DNA of 36,862 bases from Wickerhamiella versatilis (GCA_030867685.1 JAQOWU010000005.1:1-36862), one strand, 5' to 3'; counted from the stretch's first letter, positions 7,944-34,421 are shown. Notes: generated by a model from the sequence alone, not told the origin. Translations and numbers: made by a program.

Positions 7944-8304
7944 TTGATTGCCAAAGTGCAACATCATTAGCGATCAGAAAGCTCAAGTTGAAAACTACAA
8001 GTTCTTCTCGTCTCAAGAGGAGTTTAAGAATGAGTAACAATGCGTGATAAGTTATTATGTAGATAGTCGGATACATTTTGCACTGAGATTTCGATTAGAA
8101 ACAGGTTGGATAGTATTTGGCTAGCATATTCTACGGCACAACTGTGATGAACAAAACAGGTTAAAGTTAGAAAGACAAGAATACTCATTTCTGTTATGTT
8201 TCAACTATATACAGTGACATTACTGAAGATAACATAGCTAGCACATGAAAATTCAGTCTACAACAAGTATCTGGCATATGGTGTTGGTATTTTGGCACCC
8301 ACAT

Positions 8305-9393
8305 CTACAACTGGCTCAAAATTGGATCCTTACCCTTTTCAAGGACTATCTTCACCAGTTCCTTGTCACGAGCTCTTTGCAGAGCCACCTGACTAGAATC
8401 TATCTTTGCCATCTCCCTTTTAATACCACCAGCCGCGGCATTGATGAGCTCTGGTGTGATCTTATCGATGTGCCCTAGATCTGCCCACCAGCTTTCTATC
8501 GGCCTACCCAAATGTTCAAGAAGGTGGCGGATACCACCCTCTCCGCCGCCGAGGTTGAAAGTCATAAACTGTCCCATCAAAGCCCAGCGCAAGCCTGGCC
8601 CGTTGGAAACCGCCTTGTCAATATCCGCCAGGCTGGCCACGTCCTCAGTTAGCAAGTAAAACACCTCCCGAAGCACAGCAGCCTGGATGCGGTTAGCAAT
8701 ATGTCCCGTTATCTCTTTGTTGAGACGCACCGGTTTTTTCCCCAAAGCCTGATAGAAGTTGATGGCTTTCTGTACATTGGCTTCGTCAGTAAGTTTGCCA
8801 GCACACACCTCCACTAACGGAATCAAGTGGGGAGGATTAAATGGATGCCCTAGCAGAACTCGGCCAGGCAGACGCAAGGTTCGCTGATAGTCGGAGATAT
8901 GGAGCCCTGATGAGGAACTGGCAATTATAACATCATCTTTGATATGTTTCTCCAGAAGCTGGAGCAGGGATTGCTTGATAGCGAGATTCTCTGGCCCATT
9001 CGCCTGGATGAAATCAACCTCATGGAAGGCATCATTAACTTCGGTTGTGAAAGTCAGAAGATTAAGATCTACCACAAGGTCAATGTCATTGTCGGAATAA
9101 GCCGCGCGAGCATTTTCAAAAAATGCAATCAAGCGCATCTCAGCAGTAGGATCGGGATCCATAGCGACAACTTTCAGCCCTTTAGAGATGTAAAAGAATG
9201 CCCAGCTCATCCCAATAACACCGCATCCTACTACTCCGACCTTGGAGATATCTTCCACCGAGCCAATGCGGGTACACGGCTGGCTCTTGGCTTTATAGCT
9301 CGAATACGCACGTGCCAACGATGGAATGCTAGAGCGAGAAGCGACTGTCACACGACTGGACCGAAGTAGTACCTTAGACAACAACATTGACAT
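8305..9393 (-). CDS. 3-hydroxyacyl-CoA dehydrogenase family (L-carnitine dehydrogenase/lambda-crystallin-like) with N-terminal presequence
   Basis: GVVGCGVIGMSWA Rossmann motif, GPENLAIK, IIASSSSG, GHPFNPPHLIPLVEV, GHIANRIQAA, GPGLRWALMG. The N-terminal ~40 aa are Arg/Ser-rich and lack acidic residues. Confidence 0.9.
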   Translation of the reverse strand: MSMLLSKVLLRSSRVTVASRSSIPSLARAYSSYKAKSQPCTRIGSVEDISKVGVVGCGVIGMSWAFFYISKGLKVVAMDPDPTAEMRLIAFFENARAAYSDNDIDLVVDLNLLTFTTEVNDAFHEVDFIQANGPENLAIKQSLLQLLEKHIKDDVIIASSSSGLHISDYQRTLRLPGRVLLGHPFNPPHLIPLVEVCAGKLTDEANVQKAINFYQALGKKPVRLNKEITGHIANRIQAAVLREVFYLLTEDVASLADIDKAVSNGPGLRWALMGQFMTFNLGGGEGGIRHLLEHLGRPIESWWADLGHIDKITPELINAAAGGIKREMAKIDSSQVALQRARDKELVKIVLEKGKDPILSQL

Positions 9394-14721: not shown

Positions 14722-15198
14722 TCAAATCTCTTCACTTATATCCTGCGGGACAACAGACACAGCGGTTACGCAACAAGTCACTTGATATATATCCACAGTT
14801 TGTCCAATACTTTCCAAATCAAACCGAAGTCCACATGCTGCATTTGCTCCTGTTGCCTTTACGCCTGTGATCATTCGATCGATCGCTTCTTCACGTGCCA
14901 TTTGAATTAGACTAGTAAGCCTGTAGAGTTCTTCGCTGACTTTTCCCCTGATTCCTCCCTTACTTGCCTCTCTTTCTTCTCCACCACTTTTTAACATGTT
15001 GAAATTCATACCTCTTCTCGCCGTCGCGCCAAATACAACACCATGATTCTTGACGATTTCGAACCCAGGAACATCCTCTGTAGTCGATAGAACTATGCCC
15101 CCATCTTGTTCCGGGTCTGCTATACTATATGGAGGTGGGGGTTCGGGCTGACCTATGTCCTGCTTGGGCTTTTCTGATTTATCAAGCATGGTAGTCAC
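14722..15198 (-). CDS. YbjQ/UPF0145 family protein with N-terminal PPxY motif
   Basis: VLSTTEDVPGFEIVKNHGVVFG...AREEAIDRM...GANAACGLRFD...TAVSV matches the YbjQ pattern; PPPPY near the N-terminus. Confidence 0.85.
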   Translation of the reverse strand: MTTMLDKSEKPKQDIGQPEPPPPYSIADPEQDGGIVLSTTEDVPGFEIVKNHGVVFGATARRGMNFNMLKSGGEEREASKGGIRGKVSEELYRLTSLIQMAREEAIDRMITGVKATGANAACGLRFDLESIGQTVDIYQVTCCVTAVSVVPQDISEEI

Positions 15199-15370: not shown

Positions 15371-15823
15371 TTACTTACGTCCCTTGGGGACAACGGATAC
15401 AGCGGTTGCACAACAACACACCTGAGATATATTAGTATGTCCAATGTATTCTGAATCAAACCGAATCCCACATGCTGCATTTGCACCAGTTGCCTTAACA
15501 CCCGCGATCATTCGCTCCACTGCTTCTTCAAATGTGACTTGAACTAGACTCGTCTGCATGTAAAGTTCTGAGCTTGTTAAGCCCCTCTTTCCTTCCTCTC
15601 CATCTTTTTTTCCTTCGTCTGTTAACATCATTGAAAAATTCTTACCTCTTCTCACCGTCGTGCCAAATACAACACCATGGTTCTTGTCGATCTTAAACCC
15701 GGGGATCTCTCCTGTAGTTGATAGAATTATATCCCCGTCTTGATTCGAACTCATTATACTATATGGAGGTGGAAGCACTACCTGATCTAACTCCTTCTGA
15801 AGCTTTCTGAATTTATCAAACAT
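15371..15823 (-). CDS. YbjQ/UPF0145 family protein, tandem paralog
   Basis: ILSTTGEIPGFKIDKNHGVVFG...GVKATGANAACGIRFD...TAVSV; LPPPY motif; clear DNA similarity to 14722-15198. Confidence 0.85.
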   Translation of the reverse strand: MFDKFRKLQKELDQVVLPPPYSIMSSNQDGDIILSTTGEIPGFKIDKNHGVVFGTTVRRGKNFSMMLTDEGKKDGEEGKRGLTSSELYMQTSLVQVTFEEAVERMIAGVKATGANAACGIRFDSEYIGHTNISQVCCCATAVSVVPKGRK

Positions 15824-20353: not shown

Positions 20354-21229
20354 ATGAGAACGCCTAGGGTGGACAATTTCGATATCTTCAAGGAATTCTC
20401 GAACGTGGCTAGTATCTTTTCATCCTGCTATATTATTTTGGCCCCGAATAACTCTCATGAAGGCGAAGAATATAAAACTAAGCTTCTTTTCGTTTTTGCT
20501 ATCTTCACTCTGGTATTATGTGTCGCTGAAGTGATTCTTAGATGGTTCCTGAGTGACAAAATCTTCCAAGATCATCGTCTGGTGAATACAAAAAAAGGCT
20601 TGCTATCAATAATCCTGCTGGTCAGAGGAATCTTATCTCTTTTTTATTTAATGTTCACTACCTTCCTGTATAGCAGCCTGCTTTACTGGATCCTTTTTAC
20701 CCTCGTTGCTGGTAATATGGTTTTAACAGCCATAGGTGCTGCATTTAAAGAAGTCGAAAGTGTAAGGGCTAAACGAAAGAATGAGGTAAGGAGGATTTCT
20801 CTGACAATTATTGACTATTTATGCCTAACCTTGCATGGGCTCGTTTTACTGCTATCTGTAACATTGCTTGCAAGGTCTACCGCTTTGCCTTCTGATGAAC
20901 GAACCGATGACTTATATGGGGTTGCAGTCGTTATAACCCTATGCTTTATTGCGATTATGGCAATAGACATACTTTTGTATATCTATGGAATTGACGAAGA
21001 TAATTTGTATACCAATGCTCTATCGTACGCTGCCACTTTTTCCTTTTCTATGATCAGTGAGGTAGCTGCTCTTCCGCTGGCTATAATATATGCTGATACC
21101 ACTTATTGGCTAATATCAGTACTCATTGCTTTGATTTTCATGTTAATGGTTTGCTCACCTATACTCGAACGAGTGAAAGAAGTGAGAGCCGAGAAAGGCA
21201 GAGAATGTGAGGATAAACGAAAGTTGTAG
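20354..21229 (+). CDS. Hypothetical multi-pass membrane protein
   Basis: 291 aa ATG ORF with ~7-8 hydrophobic segments; no family recognised. Confidence 0.65.
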   Translation: MRTPRVDNFDIFKEFSNVASIFSSCYIILAPNNSHEGEEYKTKLLFVFAIFTLVLCVAEVILRWFLSDKIFQDHRLVNTKKGLLSIILLVRGILSLFYLMFTTFLYSSLLYWILFTLVAGNMVLTAIGAAFKEVESVRAKRKNEVRRISLTIIDYLCLTLHGLVLLLSVTLLARSTALPSDERTDDLYGVAVVITLCFIAIMAIDILLYIYGIDEDNLYTNALSYAATFSFSMISEVAALPLAIIYADTTYWLISVLIALIFMLMVCSPILERVKEVRAEKGRECEDKRKL

Positions 21230-21455: not shown

Positions 21456-23549
21456 ATGCCAAAGTCCTACAGTGGCTGCCTAAGATGCCGCCGTCAGAAA
21501 ATTAAATGTGACCAGGGAACACCTAGTTGCGAGAATTGCCTAAGTTCCAGGACTACTTGTGAGTATGCCTCCAATCTACGATGGTCTAAGGACGATCGAA
21601 ATGTCCTTCGACGGCCAGTTGAGAAAGCACGGTTTCCTCCAAACATGTGTTTTGATCCTAGTAGAGTGCATGAAATCTTAGACACTTTGGATAAAGTACA
21701 TCAAACATCTGATGCATGTATGGGACCATTCACTGTGTTCGAGGTACCAGAGCTCTTGCCATCAGCTCAATACCTTTCCAGTGACCAAAATATAGACAAG
21801 GAGCAATCGCAGAGCACTCATCCTCCCACACAGTTTTCTGAGGTACGCGGTTGTGCAGAGCATGTTCAGGAGTACAGTTCGCCAACCAATATACCTATTC
21901 CGCTATCTGAAGAAGCACCGAGCATTTTTGATAGGTTTAGTGAAACGCCACCAAATACTGGGAGCAATCAGCCGACCACAGAGTTGGACCACGCTGAGTT
22001 GTTACGAGAAGACTTGCTGAATTGCTTCTGTGAAGACTTCACTTCGAATACACCAGAACAAGATGCTGAAGTGCTCTTATTTGAACGGACGGTAGAGTGT
22101 AACTGGCCAATTAGCCAGGCGGCAAAAAACATGAGTTTTTCTATAATGAGGTTGACTACGATGGCCCAAGGACTGCTGGTATACACGACTAGAATCTTTA
22201 CACCTGACAACTCCGTGAGAGCAAGCTCTGGAAACCTTTGGTGTACTTTTTTCACACCTCCCGCCTTGGCTGCAGTTGGTGAAATCCTTGCAACCGGTTC
22301 TACTACCAGTGCAAAGTATGCTATACTTTGCGCAGTTCTTTCGTGCGGAGCTCATCGTGCAAGGCAGAACTTCAATTCAGATAGCCTTGAGGCAACTTTT
22401 TGCATTTCTCTTGGAAAAAGATTATATGATGGTAGCAGGTATTGGATCGGTAGATGGTTGAAAGATCAACCGCTGGAAAAATACAAAGATGGGCTGGTTG
22501 CGCTCATAACTTTGATGATGAATCAATTTATCACAGAAGATGAGATCAGAAGGGAAAAAACAATGCGCGTATTACAGAGAGTCGTGAATAAAAGACTGAA
22601 AGAGAGACCAGAGGTAAGCGCCAAGGTGTCTATTTTGCACAAGGCTGCTGCCATGCCAATATTACTATCGTGGGTAGCAACTGGTAGACTAAAAAACTAC
22701 GATAATGACCCTATCGATAGCTCAAGATGGATAGATTCTGCATATGAGGATACCTTTCCGACATATGAGGAAACTTTCTCCAGTATTTCCAGCAGGCTTG
22801 TTCGTCTTGATTCAAGACGAGCAATGCTGATTCACTTACAGGAACCGAACCAAATTCAAAGCTATATTGAGCAATACATATGCGATATACCCCGCGAGGC
22901 ATATGACAAAGGTTCGAACAAAAGCCAGTTTAGTTATGGATTACCACCGTCTATTATATTTCTATTTAAGGAAGCTGTGATGATTTCAGAGCTGTTTGAG
23001 AAAGGGGAGTGTAATCCAACTTCCGAATTTATCTGGAGATCCACGTTATTAGAGGCAGCCCTAGCTAACTGGGAGCGCGCCTATGAGCCGCCTATAATCA
23101 CAATTCCAGTCGGCGAAAACTCTCCAGCAGCAATGGAGGCTAGGTGGTCTGCAATTTCTAGTCATAATACTTTGGCATTTTATGATGGAGTAGTCCTATT
23201 TCATTATTGCATAAATAAAGGCGTTGATCACCGTTTACTTCAAAATACGGTGAGGCGCGTAATTGACAACCTTGAGAGCATAACATGTCTTAACATGGAG
23301 CTTAGAGAACGCATCACGGTTCCAATCCTTTTTCCAGGGTTTGTAGGTGCATGTTTGGCAATGGAGCCGGATTCAGCTCTATGCTCACGGTATGACTCGT
23401 GGCTAAATGACATGGATACTTTCAGCATCTATCCTCGTAGAAATCTTTTACGTGTGGTAACAGAATTGCGGCGGCGACGAATTCGTGGTGAACCATGTAA
23501 GTGGAGTACGATAGCCCGTGAACAACGTATAACACCAAATATGTTTTAA
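21456..23549 (+). CDS. Zn(II)2Cys6 transcription factor, Arg81-like
   Basis: KSYSGCLRCRRQKIKCDQGTPSCENC......C followed by LRWSK, as in Arg81 (KTFTGCWTCR...LRWSK); GPFTVF; long C-terminal fungal TF domain. Confidence 0.9.
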   Translation: MPKSYSGCLRCRRQKIKCDQGTPSCENCLSSRTTCEYASNLRWSKDDRNVLRRPVEKARFPPNMCFDPSRVHEILDTLDKVHQTSDACMGPFTVFEVPELLPSAQYLSSDQNIDKEQSQSTHPPTQFSEVRGCAEHVQEYSSPTNIPIPLSEEAPSIFDRFSETPPNTGSNQPTTELDHAELLREDLLNCFCEDFTSNTPEQDAEVLLFERTVECNWPISQAAKNMSFSIMRLTTMAQGLLVYTTRIFTPDNSVRASSGNLWCTFFTPPALAAVGEILATGSTTSAKYAILCAVLSCGAHRARQNFNSDSLEATFCISLGKRLYDGSRYWIGRWLKDQPLEKYKDGLVALITLMMNQFITEDEIRREKTMRVLQRVVNKRLKERPEVSAKVSILHKAAAMPILLSWVATGRLKNYDNDPIDSSRWIDSAYEDTFPTYEETFSSISSRLVRLDSRRAMLIHLQEPNQIQSYIEQYICDIPREAYDKGSNKSQFSYGLPPSIIFLFKEAVMISELFEKGECNPTSEFIWRSTLLEAALANWERAYEPPIITIPVGENSPAAMEARWSAISSHNTLAFYDGVVLFHYCINKGVDHRLLQNTVRRVIDNLESITCLNMELRERITVPILFPGFVGACLAMEPDSALCSRYDSWLNDMDTFSIYPRRNLLRVVTELRRRRIRGEPCKWSTIAREQRITPNMF

Positions 23550-23811: not shown

Positions 23812-25293
23812 CTAGAGAGAATATCGAAACGAATGGATCTCACGGTCAGTAAGATCTTCTGCGGCAGGACTATCCTCGTCAATTCCCATACTTGATTCAG
23901 TACGATCACGGCGTTTGTTTTCCCACAGGTTAAGGAAAAGTAACACGAGAAAGAGGAAGAATACAATGCATGAACATGCGGCCATGGTCGTCTTCGCTGT
24001 TGGATAGCCACTGGGCTCCTCGCTTCCCTTAAATGCCTGCGGTCCAACCAAACAACCAACGGCAAATGATAAGCTAACCATTGCTGATACAGTGGACTTT
24101 TTCGTGCGTCCACGAACATCACTCTGGACAAGGCTTAGAACAATGCAAAATACCTGCGGCTCATAAAAGGCAAACGCATAGTAACCAAAAAGCTGCATTC
24201 CCGTGTTTCCCCAGGCCAGGAAGCATAAACATAATATAAATTGCCCGCAAATACCAAGACCCCAGAAGGCAAGGCGGTATCTGACAAGAAGGCTGGCCGC
24301 AAAAATTCCTACCAATATCTGAAACACAAGCTCTACACCACCAGCGGGCATATCCATAAGAATGCTTTGCCCATCGGAAAACCCCATACCAGACAGAAGG
24401 ATGACGCTGAAATTTGTGACACCCCCACTGGGTATGTTTGTTAATATTACAGCAATGATATAAATCCATGAACGGATATCTAAAAACGCCTCCTTGATTT
24501 GAGACGCTTTGACTGGTTCATAATTCTCCTGGCATGGAATACGGTCGGCACAGGCTTCTTTTTCGGCTTCGTTTAGAAAGAACGCTTCCCGTGGTGTATT
24601 AGGTATGATGCACCCGAAAATGGCCCCAATGAGGATGGTAATAGCTCCTAAAATAACCATCTGGAGGCGCCAGGATGCCATTGGTAGACTTTTGTTTTTG
24701 TACAAGCCATAAGATAGACCATCTAGCATGATTTCAAATAACCCTACGAATGAGTACCACACAGACGTACGGGAATTGTGCTGGCTTCGGGGAAACCACT
24801 GAGTGTTGAGAACAACAAATGAAGGAATCACAGAACCCTCGAGAAATCCTTGAATCACCCGTAAGGCGATAAAAGAGGCATAATTTTTTGCCGCGCCAAG
24901 GCAGCATGTTATGACGCCCCAAAGTACTATAATAATGCCCAGGGTTTTACCAATTGGCACGCGCTGCATAAGATAGTTACCACCAAATATCTGCCAGCCC
25001 AAGTACCCAAAGTAGAAAGATGATCCTACAAAGCTGTATTGTTGACTATTCGGATCCATATTCAAGTCCTCACGGATACCCATAAGAGAAGCATTAGATG
25101 TTGAGGTTCGATCCCCAAATTGGATACCATAAACCACTGCCATAGAAAGGCATACGATAAAGTCAGCTTTGAGCTGCAAACTACGTTTCGCTCGGAGCAT
25201 GACTGGCGAGATCTCCTGCACGTCACTCACAATAACGCTGTGCGCTTCAGAGGTTGCGGGGTCTTTTTCGGACTTACACGAACTGAGTTGCAT
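23812..25293 (-). CDS. MFS anion:cation symporter, Dal5/allantoate permease family
   Basis: KADF...QFGDR...ASLMGIREDL...QYSFVGSSFYFGYL, QRVPIGK, LRVIQGFLEG, SWRL, QIKEAFLD, NIPSGGVTNF, GRTKK, VGPQAF, WENKRRD, DLTDRE..FRYSL. Start placed at the first ATG (25293). Confidence 0.92.
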   Translation of the reverse strand: MQLSSCKSEKDPATSEAHSVIVSDVQEISPVMLRAKRSLQLKADFIVCLSMAVVYGIQFGDRTSTSNASLMGIREDLNMDPNSQQYSFVGSSFYFGYLGWQIFGGNYLMQRVPIGKTLGIIIVLWGVITCCLGAAKNYASFIALRVIQGFLEGSVIPSFVVLNTQWFPRSQHNSRTSVWYSFVGLFEIMLDGLSYGLYKNKSLPMASWRLQMVILGAITILIGAIFGCIIPNTPREAFFLNEAEKEACADRIPCQENYEPVKASQIKEAFLDIRSWIYIIAVILTNIPSGGVTNFSVILLSGMGFSDGQSILMDMPAGGVELVFQILVGIFAASLLVRYRLAFWGLGICGQFILCLCFLAWGNTGMQLFGYYAFAFYEPQVFCIVLSLVQSDVRGRTKKSTVSAMVSLSFAVGCLVGPQAFKGSEEPSGYPTAKTTMAACSCIVFFLFLVLLFLNLWENKRRDRTESSMGIDEDSPAAEDLTDREIHSFRYSL

Positions 25294-25400
25294 CGCTAAA
25301 ACAGAAATGTGGGATAGTGCTTTCTGAATCACTCCTCTTTTTGTGGGTACAGATAGCGTGTTATTTTAGAATAATTCGGGTAAGGGTTCTAAAAGTCCGC

Positions 25401-25449
25401 GACAAGCGGGTTCTCCTACCCCATTTGGATTTCCAAACAGATAAGATAA
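25401..25449. promoter_or_regulatory. Divergent promoter motifs: GACAA(g/at)CGGGTTCT plus overlapping GATAAG/GATAA
   Basis: gacaagcgggttct at 25401-25414 matches gacaaatcgggttct at 28003-28017; GATAAGATAA at 25440-25449. Confidence 0.4.
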
Positions 25450-25526
25450 ATGTTTGTCATCTAATCATGTTGATTAGGCCATAGTGCGGTTATATATGGG
25501 TTGTGCTCATATTCATTGACTGTCAA

Positions 25527-26210
25527 ATGACATTTTCTCTCGTTGCACACGATCCCAGTACAGGACAGCTGGCTGTGGCTGTAAGTTCGTCATCACCTTC
25601 TGTAGGTTCCAGGTGTGCATTCGCCCGTGGTAAAGTAGGCGCTGTAACTACTCAAAAGCTCACCTTGCCGGATATCGGATCCCAGGTACTTGATGCTCTT
25701 GAGCAAGGGATGATGGCTCAAGAAGCCTTGGAAAAAGTGATAAAGCAAACACCATACGCAGATAAACGCCAAGTAACCGTAATTGATTCGAAAGGAAACA
25801 AAGCAATTTGGTTAGGTGAGGAAAACGTTTCAGGATCTGCTCAATCTAAAAATGCGGCTTCAGCAGGAAATTTCTTGGCACATGTTGGTGTCCCCAAAAC
25901 CATGGTTGATGCCTTTGAACAAAGTACCGGGGAGACGCTTGGGGACCGTATTCTCGACGGGTTACAGGCTGGTTTCGATGACGGTGGTGAGGGAAACCCT
26001 ATTCGATCGGCAGCCTTATTAGTGGTGGAAGAAGATCGCTTTCCACTCACAGATATTCGTGTTGATTGGGCCCTGAATCCTATCGAGGAAGTCAGGAAAA
26101 TCTATCATATATGGAAACCACAAATGTATGAATATCGCGTCCGTGCCGTCGATCCCTATAATGCACCTAAATTTTATGCTCCTAAAGAAGAGGAAGGCCT
26201 TTGGGATTAG
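25527..26210 (+). CDS. DUF1028 family protein (Ntn-hydrolase-like), bacterial type
   Basis: MTFSLVAHDPSTGQLAVAVSSSSPSVGSRC...VGAVTTQ...RQVTVID...AGN.L...GGE.NPIRSAALLVV...DIRVDW...P. Start at ATG 25527 exposes Thr2. Confidence 0.88.
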   Translation: MTFSLVAHDPSTGQLAVAVSSSSPSVGSRCAFARGKVGAVTTQKLTLPDIGSQVLDALEQGMMAQEALEKVIKQTPYADKRQVTVIDSKGNKAIWLGEENVSGSAQSKNAASAGNFLAHVGVPKTMVDAFEQSTGETLGDRILDGLQAGFDDGGEGNPIRSAALLVVEEDRFPLTDIRVDWALNPIEEVRKIYHIWKPQMYEYRVRAVDPYNAPKFYAPKEEEGLWD

Positions 26211-26486
26211 AAATCTATTTATCACAAGATAACCCTAGATATTTGGTAACCCAACGGCAACTGGCCCCATGAATTTATGAGGCTTTCTTAATTAAAAATT
26301 CTTGTACCCATATCACCGTTAAAAATTAAAGGATTTATAGACTTCATTATTGTATAATATTTAGCATTCATGTCTGTATACAAGTTCGAGGAAAACTGAA
26401 AAATAGGATGAGTTCACCACTGGAAGGTCAAGTTCAGTAAAAAAACTATGAACACTAGTGAAAGAAATAATAAGAGGCATATAATT

Positions 26487-27875
26487 CTAACATACGAGGT
26501 TTTCCAGTTCATTGAGCTGATACAGAACAGCAGCTTTTGCGGTACCACCAATCGCTGCCCTTTTTTCCACACTGTTATGGAAGTCAAACACATCCATAAC
26601 ATCTTCGTCAAATCTTGGATCAATTGATTTATATTGCTCGACTGATAGCTTGTCAATTCCACCAATATTGTGCTTCTCAGCAAAAGCAACTGCTTCGCCC
26701 GAAATGTGGTGCGTTTCACGGAATGGCACTCCCTTGCGTACTAGATAGTCGGCCAGATCTGTGGCCAGCATATCCATCGACAAGGCTTGAAACATACGAG
26801 TTTCATTAATTTTTAGAGTTGAGAGAATGCCTTTTGAAATTTGTAAAGAATTCTGAACCGTGGCCAGACTATCGAATAGTGGCTCCTTATCCTCACGCAA
26901 ATCCTTGTTGTACGTAGAGGGCATACCTTTACATACAACCATGAAACCAACGAGATGCCCTATAATTGTACCTGACTTCCCACGTATCAATTCAAGGGAG
27001 TCTGGATTCTTCTTCTGGGGCATCAACGAAGAGCCAGTTGAATACGCATCTGCGGCTTGTACAAACCCAAACTCAGCTGTAGAGTAAATTATGAGATCTT
27101 CACTCATTTTAGCCAAATGCGAGGCGACCATAGAGCACCAAAATAGTGTTTCAATCACAAAATCTCGATCGGAGACAGCCGCCAGTGAATTCCCGACTAC
27201 ACCCTCAAAGCCAAGTTCACGAGCCATGAATTCTCGATCGACAGCATAGGGATTCCCAGCTAGAGCACCGGTGCCGAGAGGACATTGATTAATGCGAACT
27301 ATCAACTGATCAAGTCGTTTAAAATCTTCGCCCAAAAATGTGGCTAGCATGCTAAGCCAGTGGGACCAGCGGATTGGTTGTGCTCGCTGCATGTGTGTAT
27401 AGCCGGGCATAAGCACATCAATCTCTGCACGAGCACGCTGAGCAATGACTAGGATTAACTCAACTAGAAATTGGCGAATTATCCTTAACTTGTCAATCGT
27501 GTGGAGCCGTAAATCCGTCACAACTTGATCATTGCGAGAACGTCCAGTGTGAACTTTTCCAGCAATATTTCGCCCAATAATTTCACCTAATCGTCTCTCG
27601 TTCGCAGTATGTATATCTTCATCACCAGGCCTCGTGATAAAGTTTCCCTGAGACCACTCATTCTCAAGCTCTTTAAGTCCAGAACTAATTTCTGACAGCT
27701 CATGATTGTTTAATATTCCAGCTTTCTGTAAAGCCTGTGTATATACTTGAGTCCCCTTGATATCGGCAGCATACATTTGCTTGCCGGTAGACAATGATTC
27801 ATTAAACGTCTCCATCAACGGGTCCATTTCTTCAGAAAAGCGACCTCCCCACAACTTGTTACCGGAAGTGTTCAT
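26487..27875 (-). CDS. ARG4: Argininosuccinate lyase (fungal Arg4-type), possibly a neofunctionalised paralog
   Basis: [85 protein letters not shown]. Confidence 0.95.
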
Positions 27876-28127
27876 GATTCTTACTCTTTCTTCGTCTTAG
27901 GATAAAAGTGAAACCCAAATATCTACTGCTATATATGATACTGTGATTATATAACCTGTCCACAATCATTAAAACCCTGATTCAACATATCAGAAACAAG
28001 ATGACAAATCGGGTTCTTTTTCCTAATTAATTTAGGGAAAGGGCAGGGGCCCCGACAAAGCCAACCACTGATAATGCGAAATATGTACTAGTTGCTGTAC
28101 ACTTTTGTTCGACTGGGTGTAATCGTG

Positions 28128-29495
28128 ATGGCTGTAAAAAGTCGGAAACTTGATAAACTGGTCTCATTTGTCGAGGAGCTTAAGTTCGAGAATATCCCTA
28201 CGAATGTTGTTGAACGAGCCAAGCGTCATTTTCTGGATGCGATAGGTGCAGCACTTGCAGGTACCACTAGTGATGCATTCCTCAAGGTTTTAAGACAGTC
28301 ATGCTTGACGGAACCAAGCTTTGATTGTCTAGTTTGGGGAACAAAATATCACTTTTCGTCGACTGTAGCTGCCTTTGCTAACGGTGTAGCTGCCCATGCT
28401 TTAGAGCTCGATGATACTGGAGGATGCGATCATAGTGGTGCAGTAGTAGTACCCTCAATACTCTCCTTGTTACCTGTACTTGGTAGACCCGTCAGCGGGC
28501 GCGAGCTTCTCACTGCCATGATTGTGGGTTATGAGGTTGGTAGGAGGGTTTTAGAAGCCTGTGGGGGATATGCAGCACATAATAATGATGGCTGGCACTC
28601 TACTGCCACTTGCGGTGTATTCGGGGCCTCTGCAGCCTGCGCAAAGCTAATGGGGCTGTCAGGTGAGAAATTAAAGTCAGCGATAACCTTATCAAGTAGT
28701 GCTTGTTCTGGACTATGGGCTTTCGTGCACGATTCTTCCCAAAGCAAGAAACTGCACGCAGGCTTGGCGTCAAAGGGCGGAATTGGGGCGGCATTACTTG
28801 CTCGTGAAGGCATGGAAGGACCATCTTATTTGTTTGATGATATATGGGGTGGCTTTTTAAAAACATATGCTAAAGACCATGCTGAATCGGAAGCCTTGTA
28901 TGAGGGCTTGGGTATGATCTGGAAACTAATGAGATGTTCCATCAAGCCTTATGCCTCTTGCCGAGGGACCCATAGCAGTATTGATGCAGTTATAGAGCTT
29001 ATGGAAGACTACGGTATCTCAGTTGATGAAATAAAGGCTGTAAAAATACATCTGAGTCCTTTTCTATATAATATGTGCGGGACTCGAGACCTGAGCAGTC
29101 TTGCTAGTGCACAGATGAGTCTTCCGTATGCGCTTACGGCTATAATTACATTAGGAGATGCCGGATTAAACGCATACCAACCAGAATATTTCAATTCAGC
29201 ATCTACAAAAGATTTTATGGACCGTATTGTGCTCAAAGTAGATGACAACTGCGATCCATCCAGAGAGCCTGATGTTACTTTAGATTCTAGTGATGGCCGT
29301 TCATTCACCACTCGCGTTGATATCGCTTTGGGGAATCCTAGGAATCCAATGAGTGATAAAATATTGTTATCCAAATTTGAAGAGTTGGCTGGGCGTGTGT
29401 TGGCTCCTGAAAAAGTTGCTCAAACAATTCTTATGTGCCTCTCCCTTGAGAAGTTGGATGATGGAAAAGCTTTACTGGACCTATTGCAAGCTTAA
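28128..29495 (+). CDS. MmgE/PrpD family protein (IDS-epimerase/YxeQ-like rather than canonical methylcitrate dehydratase), bacterial type
   Basis: AAFANGVAAHALELDD, H.GAVVVP, GYEVG.R, GWHSTATCGVFGA, KKLHAG, IKPYASCRGTHSSID, AQMSLPY, GNPRNPMS...KF. Start placed at ATG 28128. Confidence 0.92.
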   Translation: MAVKSRKLDKLVSFVEELKFENIPTNVVERAKRHFLDAIGAALAGTTSDAFLKVLRQSCLTEPSFDCLVWGTKYHFSSTVAAFANGVAAHALELDDTGGCDHSGAVVVPSILSLLPVLGRPVSGRELLTAMIVGYEVGRRVLEACGGYAAHNNDGWHSTATCGVFGASAACAKLMGLSGEKLKSAITLSSSACSGLWAFVHDSSQSKKLHAGLASKGGIGAALLAREGMEGPSYLFDDIWGGFLKTYAKDHAESEALYEGLGMIWKLMRCSIKPYASCRGTHSSIDAVIELMEDYGISVDEIKAVKIHLSPFLYNMCGTRDLSSLASAQMSLPYALTAIITLGDAGLNAYQPEYFNSASTKDFMDRIVLKVDDNCDPSREPDVTLDSSDGRSFTTRVDIALGNPRNPMSDKILLSKFEELAGRVLAPEKVAQTILMCLSLEKLDDGKALLDLLQA

Positions 29496-30059
29496 ATACT
29501 AACCTAGAATAACTTTGATCCTACTCGGTTGTATTTGTAATAATCTGGGACATATTGTCCTTCACAGTTAACATGCTCAAGAAATGGTTTCCTCATAAAA
29601 CATCTTATCTGCCCGATTGCTCTATAATCTTGCAGTTTGGGGCTGCTATCTTCTGCATTAGTCAACGCAGTTGCGTTATCTTGTAAATGGGTGAGACTGT
29701 AGAGGAGGAAAAGAAGACAGCTCCCTATCATATAACCTTGGGTTTCACCAGTTATATGGAGCCCACGATTGATTAGGCTATCTCACAGAAGACCCAATAT
29801 TTCACTTTTCATCTCAGATATGCGGCCAATTGTTTTTTATTCTAACCAGAACTATTGAACCGATCACTTTGTTCCTAAAGCTATTAGTGCTAGTTAAGTT
29901 GGAATATTTCGGGATGATTATACTGATGCACTGGGTGAAGAAAATTATTATGGGCATGTCGTACAGAAGCGTTCCCTTATGGATACTTTCTTTTTTGTTT
30001 TTTTCTATTTCGTTTCTTTTTGATTCATTAAAGTATTCCTGCTAAGAATTAAATTACTA

Positions 30060-31866: not shown

Positions 31867-32870
31867 TTATGTCTTTAATAAGTAGACAGTGAGAAATTGA
31901 TTAGCTATTGCTGGTATAGAAGTGACGTATCTCACCCGTATTTTTAATATCAAATTACCATTCGTAAGATTGATTCTAAAGCGGTATATCGTTAAGCTAC
32001 AAAGATAAGCTAAGAGGTTTGATAAAAATCCAAGCACACAGTAGCTAAATTCCAAAAAATAGATCCCATGCCCAATATATTGAATTCAGCTTTACGAACC
32101 TGGAGAGCAGAACACAAGCAAGCCAACGCATTTACGAAAAGGATTACCGCAATAAGAATCCGATAAGGCCGTCTGAGACTAAAAATCCCGACTAACATCG
32201 GAAATGCCAACCTTGCGCTTATCAATAAAGACAGCGTAATTATCTGTAATGGACGAAGTACATTCAAAAACCTAATAATTCCATTAAAAGCCTCAAGCTG
32301 TACAGATAAACCAATTTGCATATCAAGCTTGAATGACATGGAAGGAATTAAAAAAACGAAACTCATCGACAGACCAAGAATTACCAGCAATAAAAGCCCA
32401 GGGGAGCTTATCCACTTGACAACCAAGTTTTTACCACACATGACTATACCAATAAGAAACGCAAAAATTATCGGGAGCATCCCAAAAGATCCTATAACAC
32501 ATGGAAAAGCCAAAAGATCCGACGTGGGGTTCTTTGAAACAAAATCCTTTAGGTCTTCGCTTCCATGGATCCCTCTGTTTAGGTACGCCTTCTGGTACAA
32601 GTATGCCAACATTAGAATGAACGAGTTGCATACCCATATACCCGCCGCTCGATGCATAGGGAAATAATTACATGGATGGTACATATGAAATACCAAAAGT
32701 GGTGAGACTGACTCAAGTATTATGAGCCACTTGAACCTCATTGCTGTGTTTGCAGCTTCAGGTATGACTGCAGAACTGAGTCCAGCAAGAATAAGGAAAA
32801 GTAATTCGATATAATCTGTCTTTGTTGCCGTCAAGTAAACCTCTTCTACCCCATCAGTGCTCCTACCCAT
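31867..32870 (-). pseudogene. Multi-pass membrane protein, apparently frameshifted (ORF 32010-32870 plus ORF 31867-32055)
   Basis: Hydrophobic 286-aa ORF overlaps a 62-aa hydrophobic ORF at an A6 run (32054-32059); removing one base fuses them. The 31867 frame and its double stop are conserved in the paralogous fragment at 9756-10019. Confidence 0.55.
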
Positions 32871-33512: not shown

Positions 33513-34421
33513 TTGCACGAGTGGATGGATCCACCTGCAAATAGTAAGCTGAGTGCTAGTAGCATCAATGACTTCGAAAATGAAAGTAGTATAACATCTT
33601 CAGAAACCTATAGCTGCAAAATATCCTTCCAACGGAACATGTGTATGCTGGGAATCTTGTATTTCTTCTCCTCGCAATCTTCTTATATGTGGAGGAATGC
33701 ATTAAAGCAACACCATACTCTTTTATTTGTTTTTATTACATTAATATTTGTCACTGCTGGTATCTCGCTTCTCAACGTCAGATTCCATCGGAACTTGGGG
33801 TTAAATATATTTTTCATACACTCTCTAGTGGGGTGTATGTTCACAGGATGCTGTTGCCTCTCTGACAGTGGCTTTAGCATTGTTTTCTACGCTATTTCGA
33901 ACGTGGCATTTGTCTGCAGCACAGCGTGTGTCTCTGCTCAAGAGCTTTTTGACTCGACGCGCTCTAGTGGGCTTCTAGCAGCGACTGTATCGACATTACA
34001 TTCTGCACTACTATATTATCTGTATAACCTACGAAGTGAAATTATACAGAAGATACATATTACAATATTGCTTTCGCTTGAGACAATACTCATAATGCTG
34101 CCACAACTGTCAAACGCCTGCCCATCATCCAACTCAGAGAATCGATTAAGGTATGGCAGTGCCATTATTTTATGTACTGGTACTTTGAATTCCATTTTAG
34201 AGGCTATCAAACTGCAAACGGACTTTATTTTTATTTCGTCGGCTTGTATATCAGTCGTCCTATCTGTGTTTATCGTCATGGGCAGCTTCGTAATTAATCG
34301 CCGTGATTTCGAGAGATTTGAAAGGTCACTTGTTAATCCGAAACTAGCCCTTTTTGCTTCATCACTCATTGTAGTTGCCGCTGCTGCCAATCATAGTTTG
34401 TCCCAAATTCTTTTAAAGTGA
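33513..34421 (+). CDS. Hypothetical multi-pass membrane protein (start uncertain)
   Basis: 302-aa ORF with many hydrophobic segments. The called start is TTG; there is an in-frame ATG at 33525 and an out-of-frame ATG at 33475. Confidence 0.6.
   Translation: MHEWMDPPANSKLSASSINDFENESSITSSETYSCKISFQRNMCMLGILYFFSSQSSYMWRNALKQHHTLLFVFITLIFVTAGISLLNVRFHRNLGLNIFFIHSLVGCMFTGCCCLSDSGFSIVFYAISNVAFVCSTACVSAQELFDSTRSSGLLAATVSTLHSALLYYLYNLRSEIIQKIHITILLSLETILIMLPQLSNACPSSNSENRLRYGSAIILCTGTLNSILEAIKLQTDFIFISSACISVVLSVFIVMGSFVINRRDFERFERSLVNPKLALFASSLIVVAAAANHSLSQILLK

Follow-up and report, generated by a model that had tools for sequence, protein, structure and literature searches.

A probable repurposed duplicate of yeast ARG4 without two near-invariant residues, set beside bacterial-type genes in Wickerhamiella versatilis

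This report concerns a lyase gene in a 36.9-kb stretch of DNA from the yeast Wickerhamiella versatilis (GCA_030867685.1 JAQOWU010000005.1:1-36862); the whole of this stretch is called the window below. The gene (26487..27875, minus strand) encodes a 462-amino-acid (aa) protein of the argininosuccinate lyase (ASL; Arg4, ArgH) type, which keeps its catalytic motifs intact and carries Gly31 and Arg327 at the sites of the family's near-invariant aspartate and glutamine. The gene is probably a repurposed duplicate of ARG4 in a putative catabolic gene cluster, and its product would be a lyase that releases fumarate from an N-succinyl-type compound.

Loss of two signature residues from an intact catalytic framework

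In architecture and curated score, the window lyase is an argH/Arg4 protein. It matches the Pfam families Lyase_1 (307.4 bits) and ASL_C2 (93.7 bits), reaches 587.9 bits on the TIGR00838 argH profile (cut-off 279.5), and contains the three conserved regions of the class II lyase (aspartase/fumarase) superfamily. Its nearest solved structures are duck delta-2 crystallin and human ASL (E = 1e-161 to 1e-156). RSRND, GYTH and the remaining catalytic motif all appear in the translation of the open reading frame (ORF), as a preliminary description of the gene had reported for the catalytic and fumarate-side motifs. The corresponding residues (RSRND, T-H, the catalytic loop and Glu295) are also present in P0002 (83% identity) and P0003 (80% identity), which together with the window lyase make up a three-member clade.

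What separates the protein from argH and Arg4 is the absence of the Asp31 and Gln327 pair. Direct reading of the minus strand from 27806 gives ttt aat gaa tca ttg tct acc ggc aag, or FNESLSTGK, in which Gly31 is encoded by GGC at 27783..27785. From 26915 the same strand reads acg tac aac aag gat ttg cgt gag gat aag gag, with the CGT codon of Arg327 at 26895..26897, and both codons agree with the glycine and arginine named in the preliminary description. Alignment with duck delta-2 crystallin (1k7w) sets Gly31 opposite Asp33 and Arg327 opposite Gln328. By analogy with delta-crystallin and ASL structures, Asp31 and Gln327 (duck Asp33 and Gln328) would hold the amino-acid end of arginine. Ser29, Asp33, Tyr323, Gln328 and Lys331 are the residues presumed to shape the site at the arginine alpha-amino/carboxyl end; PMC2779060 covers the fumarate side of the active site. 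Human ASL p.D31N is tabulated as pathogenic or likely pathogenic in PMC12512550, which is consistent with the role presumed for Asp31. A deep mutational scan of human ASL in yeast (PMC12818424) may bear on the effects of D31G and Q326R.

Additional sequence data support both codons and the local gene order. Contigs of three runs (X10, X11 and X12), which come from two studies and are not marked as possible sources of the window, cover codons 31 and 327 with zero differing letters. Because these independent contigs agree at both codons, Gly31 and Arg327 are no assembly slip. An X10 contig of 5,435 bases covers 25594-29600 with a single difference, at 26091. Since this contig spans the lyase gene together with its DUF1028 and PrpD-like neighbours, their adjacency does not come from chimeric assembly. 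The runs carrying window DNA are food, food-fermentation and sediment metagenomes.

Rarity of the substitutions

Comparison with close homologues confines the two changes to a single clade. The close set, which holds the best 120 of 8000 scored homologues, consists entirely of yeast-type Arg4 at 64-100% identity. Outside the three-member clade, position 31 is Asp and position 327 is Gln in 117/117 of these sequences. Within it, P0002 carries Gly31 and Arg327 as the window lyase does; position 327 is altered in all three members and position 31 in two, and every member keeps the catalytic motifs.

A family-wide set gives the same picture. It comprises the best 150 matches from a search of 1.84 billion cluster representatives (50%-identity clusters), whose identity to the query ranges from 37 to 55%. 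At position 31, 145 of them have Asp, 1 has Glu, 1 has Ala and 3 have a gap; at position 327, 144 have Gln, 1 has Leu and 5 have a gap. None of the 150 has Gly31, Arg327 or Gly327, and none departs at both positions. Asp31 (145/147) and Gln327 (144/145) are about as strongly conserved as the catalytic Ser, His and Lys, with the catalytic Ser282 at 146/148. The preliminary description had proposed an alignment with Arg4 and ArgH sequences as a check on rarity, and the absence of both substitutions from the 117 close and 150 family sequences bears it out.

The window lyase has other unusual residues: it differs at 35 sites where close yeast Arg4 sequences show at least 93% conservation. Most of these 35 sites are variable family-wide, and about 20 of the departures are identical across all three clade members. 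Further differences from canonical ASL lie within residues 14-31 and at R127I and R303T. When the 93 positions with at least 85% conservation in the family-wide set are considered, 31 and 327 are the only ones at which the clade differs from the family as well as from canonical yeast Arg4, so the preliminary description had chosen the two sites that matter by this measure.

Descent of the lyase

A quick maximum-likelihood tree of the 120 close sequences (LG+G4 model, with support only from the Shimodaira-Hasegawa-like approximate likelihood ratio test, SH-aLRT) joins the three lyases in one clade (support 100). This clade is nested in a group of 13 sequences (support 98) that includes the named Arg4 proteins of Wickerhamiella sorbophila and Starmerella bacillaris. 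Its stem measures 0.52 changes per site, compared with 0.05-0.13 for neighbouring internal branches, and its tips (0.17-0.24) are similar to those of canonical Arg4. This branch pattern points to rapid change along the stem and constraint thereafter, unlike the pattern of a generally fast lineage or a decaying gene. The window lyase probably arose as a duplicate of yeast ARG4.

A parallel in a gammaproteobacterial operon

Changes at the same two positions occur in an ArgH paralogue encoded in a gammaproteobacterial operon. In the Pantoea sp. B65 record (G001, locus L056), a homologue 51% identical to the window's PrpD-like protein ends an operon that contains genes for a divergent LysR regulator, an ASL-like protein, an ATP-binding cassette (ABC) permease, an ATPase, a family-3 binding protein and two polysaccharide-deacetylase/PuuE-like proteins of the carbohydrate esterase 4 (CE4) type. 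An agmatinase-family gene lies nearby (L083:10697-11740). The operon loci are L083:2444-9529, L114-L133 and L148:3443-10641, and the importer is of the polar-amino-acid type. PrpD-like homologues are found in 36/251 sampled genomes of the Pseudomonas-type genus to which genome G002 belongs, in 2/401 genomes of G002's order, including G613 (60% identity), and in 1/151 genomes of G001's order, namely G001 itself. The flanks of 20 of the 36 genus homologues were examined along with those of G001 and G613, and in all 22 loci an ASL-like gene lies 5-6 kb upstream of the PrpD-like gene on the same strand.

On TIGR00838 these bacterial paralogues reach 516-523 bits, and all of their catalytic motifs are intact. 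Position 31 is Tyr in 22/22, and position 327 is Ser in 21 and Gly in one (G613). A canonical argH with Asp and Gln (640-697 bits) is present elsewhere in 5/5 genomes tested. Of the 93 conserved positions, 11 differ from the family in the bacterial paralogue, and 31 and 327 are two of these; the overlap with the yeast changes has a hypergeometric P of 0.013, or 0.0066 when the comparison is confined to the 43 positions with conservation of 95% or more. In some Pseudomonas-type loci, AstA-like genes occur near the operon (7/21) and so do DDAH-like genes (5/21), as counted by clustering with one representative of each scanned (for example L118:12501-14476). Such neighbours, or the agmatinase-family gene, hint that the operon's substrate may be a guanidino compound.

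The window lyase shares with this system the loss of both Asp31 and Gln327 from a protein with its catalytic motifs kept, as well as adjacency to a gene of the same PrpD-like subfamily, although the window pair is arranged divergently, ~250 bp apart. A comparison for common descent with the bacterial paralogue gave a negative result: the window lyase is 37% identical to the bacterial paralogues and 64-70% identical to canonical yeast Arg4, so the resemblance is parallel and not inherited.

These comparisons also bear on the central proposal of the preliminary description, which held that the arginine-end pocket is remodelled and that the substrate is probably not argininosuccinate. That proposal gains from the finding that 31 and 327 are the only family-wide conserved positions at which the yeast clade departs from canonical Arg4, and from the bacterial parallel and the genomic context. 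The accompanying argument from charge, in which a more basic pocket points to a substrate with an absent or acylated alpha-amino group or an additional carboxylate, is weakened. A more basic pocket fits the window lyase and P0002, but it fits neither P0003 (Asp/Gly) nor the bacterial proteins (Tyr with Ser or Gly). Since the replacement residues vary among relatives, the common feature is the loss of Gln327, and usually of Asp31, and not a gain of charge.

Bacterial-type partner genes and the five-gene neighbourhood

Five closely packed genes, encoding a Zn2Cys6 regulator, a major facilitator superfamily (MFS) permease, a DUF1028 protein, the ASL-like lyase and an MmgE/PrpD-like protein, form the setting of the lyase. 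The Zn2Cys6/Fungal_trans_2 transcription factor gene (21456..23549, plus strand) is a putative cluster regulator, judging from its position. The MFS permease gene (23812..25332, minus strand), whose true start codon is uncertain, has its best NCBIfam match in the anion:cation symporter family TIGR00893, at 201.7 bits and under the cut-off of 395. The DUF1028 gene (25527..26210, plus strand) encodes a 227-aa protein of the N-terminal nucleophile (Ntn) hydrolase superfamily, and the MmgE/PrpD-family gene (28128..29495, plus strand) encodes 455 aa and diverges from the lyase gene. Window genes are compact, with Pfam domains in single uninterrupted ORFs, and the GC content of the DUF1028 and PrpD-like genes (0.45-0.47) equals that of their yeast neighbours.

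The best 120 matches of the window PrpD-like protein are 49-60% identical to it, and all named ones are from Gammaproteobacteria. The highest identity, 60%, is to proteins of Salinicola (Halomonadaceae), and in a tree the window protein groups with Salinicola-named proteins (7 sequences, support 99) inside gammaproteobacterial sequences. The gene has the marks of horizontal acquisition, and a salt-tolerant bacterium of the same habitat is a plausible donor, window DNA being found mainly in food-fermentation metagenomes. Against solved structures, the protein is about equally close to cis-aconitate decarboxylase (E = 8.5e-40) and iminodisuccinate epimerase (2hp0, E = 4.2e-35).

The DUF1028 protein has only two close relatives among the matches listed, at 86% and 72% identity, and these lie on single contigs of 36,970 and 7,361 bases. 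P0002 and P0003 likewise lie on single contigs of 36,970 and 7,361 bases, so the lyase/DUF1028 pair is linked in three organisms. The remaining 117 listed matches are at most 52% identical, and the three that carry an organism name are bacterial. An N-terminal Met-Thr is invariant over 30 aligned DUF1028 sequences, as expected of an Ntn hydrolase.

A prokaryotic genome scan yields 593 DUF1028 relatives, and the surroundings of 80 bacterial loci (L001-L080, with the gene around 8001-8675) were analysed, 63 of them with a recognisable gene. Neighbours were counted by clustering, and one representative per cluster was scanned. An M20 protein is near DUF1028 in 33/63 loci, and its representative exceeds the acetylornithine deacetylase cut-offs (506 against 412 bits on NF005710, 353 against 298 on TIGR01892). 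Other neighbours are RidA-family proteins (29 loci), LysR regulators (25) and flavin monooxygenase (FMO)-like proteins (20). A further cluster of 27 ORFs (25 loci) represents an antisense ORF over DUF1028 itself and was disregarded. The company of M20, RidA and flavin monooxygenase proteins suggests an undescribed pathway for an amine or amino-acid derivative. Within a limited paper collection, no relevant literature on DUF1028 was found. In G001, a DUF1028 gene lies ~17 kb away from the ArgH-paralogue operon. It is suggestive that both bacterial settings hold diverged copies of arginine-pathway enzymes, ArgE-like in one and ArgH-like in the other. A tblastn search of the window finds no counterpart of the CE4, ABC, M20, RidA or FMO-like partners.

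Two divergent intergenic regions separate genes of the cluster, one between the MFS and DUF1028 genes (25333..25526) and one between the ASL-like and PrpD-like genes (27876..28127). The sequence CGGGTTCT occurs only twice in the window, at 25407-25414 and 28010-28017, once in each divergent promoter and each time preceded by ACAA; a longer version of the pattern has one match only. The two regions have seven 8-mers in common against a shuffle mean of 2.1, a value reached in 32/1000 shuffles. Because this enrichment is mild, CGGGTTCT is not counted as evidence for a common promoter motif and is at most a lead to a regulator site.

Elsewhere, the window holds genes of the arrestin-like, PTM1-like and sugar-transporter kinds. 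A tandem pair of YbjQ_1-family genes (for putative heavy-metal-binding proteins) lies at 14722-15198 and 15371-15823 on the minus strand. Three ORFs of 286-302 aa have no Pfam match (20354-21229, 32010-32870 and 33513-34421); the one at 20354-21229 is just upstream of the Zn2Cys6 regulator gene and could belong to the cluster.

Relation to known enzyme systems

Compared with ASL (Arg4, ArgH, TIGR00838) and the active duck delta-2 crystallin, the window lyase has the same two-domain architecture (1k7w, E = 1.4e-161). It differs in lacking Asp31 and Gln327 and in sitting among bacterial-type genes, whereas the canonical gene stands alone. On sequence grounds, the protein is placed in the ASL branch of the aspartase/fumarase superfamily; because the Asp/Gln pair is missing, it is not filed as an Arg4 equivalog. 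The gammaproteobacterial ArgH paralogue resembles it in the two changed positions, the intact motifs and the linkage to the same PrpD-like subfamily (48-60% identical). Unlike the window, the bacterial operon includes an ABC importer and two CE4/PuuE-like hydrolases and has no DUF1028 gene, and the window lyase is of yeast descent.

Two further systems offer functional analogies. The degradation of iminodisuccinate, a synthetic compound, combines an iminodisuccinate epimerase of the MmgE/PrpD family (2hp0) with a C-N lyase. The window likewise places a PrpD-family enzyme beside a predicted fumarate-releasing C-N lyase; the match here is to the epimerase structure, and the window PrpD-like protein matches cis-aconitate decarboxylase slightly better. 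Ethylenediaminedisuccinate (EDDS) lyase (6g3d), deposited as 'argininosuccinate lyase', is an ASL-like enzyme for a non-arginine amine. Close kinship with it is not found, since it ranks 17th among the PDB matches of the window lyase (E = 1.2e-45) and belongs to a different subfamily.

Within a limited paper collection, no literature was found on the bacterial operon of ArgH paralogue and PrpD-like protein or on ASL together with MmgE. Judged by title and abstract opening, the papers listed on yeast paralogues and horizontal transfer likewise included none on a yeast argininosuccinate lyase paralogue. A precedent for the mixed gene content comes from Wickerhamiella/Starmerella yeasts, in which a bacterial enterobactin operon is reported to be integrated with native genes (bioRxiv 10.1101/2023.11.21.568075). 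The two cases fall in the same clade (by the Arg4 tree) and both set bacterial-type genes beside a native-type gene with which they seemingly work. Here, in contrast, the native partner would be a diverged housekeeping duplicate, and the bacterial-type genes come from two contexts.

Proposed function and alternatives

In the proposed mechanism, the ARG4 duplicate would retain the fumarate-eliminating machinery of ASL after the loss of Asp31 and Gln327. The lyase would hold the succinyl (fumarate) moiety in the manner of ASL and would accept another leaving group, because the residues presumed to hold the far end of arginine are gone. Its substrate class would be N-(1,2-dicarboxyethyl) or N-succinyl-type compounds other than argininosuccinate. 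The anion-type MFS permease would import the compound, the DUF1028 Ntn-hydrolase and, in this species, the PrpD-like enzyme would prepare it, and the ASL-like lyase would then cleave it. By analogy with iminodisuccinate epimerase, the PrpD-like enzyme may control the configuration of the succinyl carbon or isomerise the substrate in some other way, and DUF1028 could open an amide. The sequence features with their rarity, the linkage of the genes and the bacterial parallel are direct observations, whereas the substrate class, what the partner genes do, the catabolic direction and paralogy in this yeast are deductions.

Several observations weigh against this assignment. The window lyase scores far above the argH equivalog cut-off, its paralogy within this yeast is putative, and the structural role of Asp31 and Gln327 is a presumed one. 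P0003 keeps Asp31 and has Gly at position 327. A single event may underlie all the bacterial paralogues (21 from Pseudomonas/Pantoea and that of G613), which would leave two independent lineages and not 22. The replacement residues differ, with Gly/Arg or Gly327 in yeast and other residues in bacteria, so the substrates need not match. Among the best 120 PrpD-like matches, none lies on the 36,970- or 7,361-base contigs. The ORFs of the 80 bacterial DUF1028 loci include no PrpD-like match and one weak lyase match, which is an aspartase, and no DUF1028 gene lies within 9 kb of the 21 bacterial operons checked. Because DUF1028 and PrpD-like loci are distinct in bacteria, the window's two bacterial-type genes come from different contexts.

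Some of these points would also suit a gene that still encodes a working argininosuccinate lyase, the sole or a redundant Arg4, in which the substitutions are tolerated lineage-specific changes. Such continuity accords with the intact catalytic motifs, the 587.9-bit TIGR00838 match and the Asp31 of P0003, and the clade's place in the tree also fits orthology in a sub-lineage. It is nevertheless unlikely, for neither substitution occurs in the 117 close yeast Arg4 sequences or the 150 family representatives, and bacterial proteins changed at the same positions coexist with canonical argH in 5/5 genomes. The stem branch of 0.52 is several times longer than neighbouring internal branches, and even so conservative a change as D31N in human ASL is classed in PMC12512550 as pathogenic or likely pathogenic. 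Another reading, rather unlikely on present data, assigns the protein a different reaction type or direction within the superfamily, with either a non-nitrogen leaving group, as in XcbC, or a synthase reaction in which an amine is joined to fumarate. Both kinds of activity occur in the aspartase/fumarase superfamily, and EDDS lyase performs the addition in vitro in aminopolycarboxylate synthesis. The window lyase matches the EDDS-lyase chains (6g3d, E = 1.2e-45) and the XcbC model NF052535 (205.5 bits, below the cut-off of 575), and either direction of reaction would be compatible with the evidence. However, the protein is far closer to true ASLs (E = 1e-161), and a catabolic role is suggested by the permease and Zn2Cys6 regulator in yeast and the LysR regulator and binding-protein-dependent importer in bacteria, which are usual marks of catabolic clusters.

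The long stem and the 35 departures from positions at least 93% conserved could instead reflect relaxed constraint on a decaying or non-enzymatic duplicate, similar to the inactive delta-1 crystallin. This explanation is very improbable. The reading frame is full-length, no catalytic motif has been lost in any of the three organisms (80-83% identity), and the clade's tips are no longer than those of canonical genes. Moreover, about 20 of the 35 departures are common to all three proteins and were therefore fixed and then kept, and the linkage to DUF1028 is conserved.

A repurposed ARG4 duplicate thus stands as the probable account of the gene, and a broader picture can be tentatively drawn around it. 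In this possible but less secure extension, a food-fermentation yeast would have assembled a hybrid pathway in which the duplicated ARG4 lost the two specificity residues that the bacterial paralogue also lost, and joined a permease, a regulator and two genes drawn from two different bacterial pathways (DUF1028 and the Halomonadaceae-type PrpD-like gene). Yeast cluster and bacterial operon might then degrade the same natural N-(1,2-dicarboxyethyl) compound or related ones. Candidates would be an aminopolycarboxylate (as in the aspergillomarasmine-type products of moulds), an opine-like iminodiacid or a guanidinosuccinate-type compound.

Implications

Under automatic annotation the yeast gene and the bacterial paralogue alike are called "argininosuccinate lyase", since their scores exceed the equivalog cut-off by a wide margin. 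Two residues separate the yeast and bacterial variants from true ASL and provide a simple rule for correcting the annotation. The bacterial operon suggests that bacteria associated with plants and food have a catabolic pathway not recognised so far, and the findings offer a way into two functionally uncharacterised families, DUF1028 and the PrpD-like subfamily. If the proposed function is true, the window would hold a clear case of a duplicated housekeeping enzyme that was re-specified in parallel with bacteria and then joined with horizontally acquired genes.

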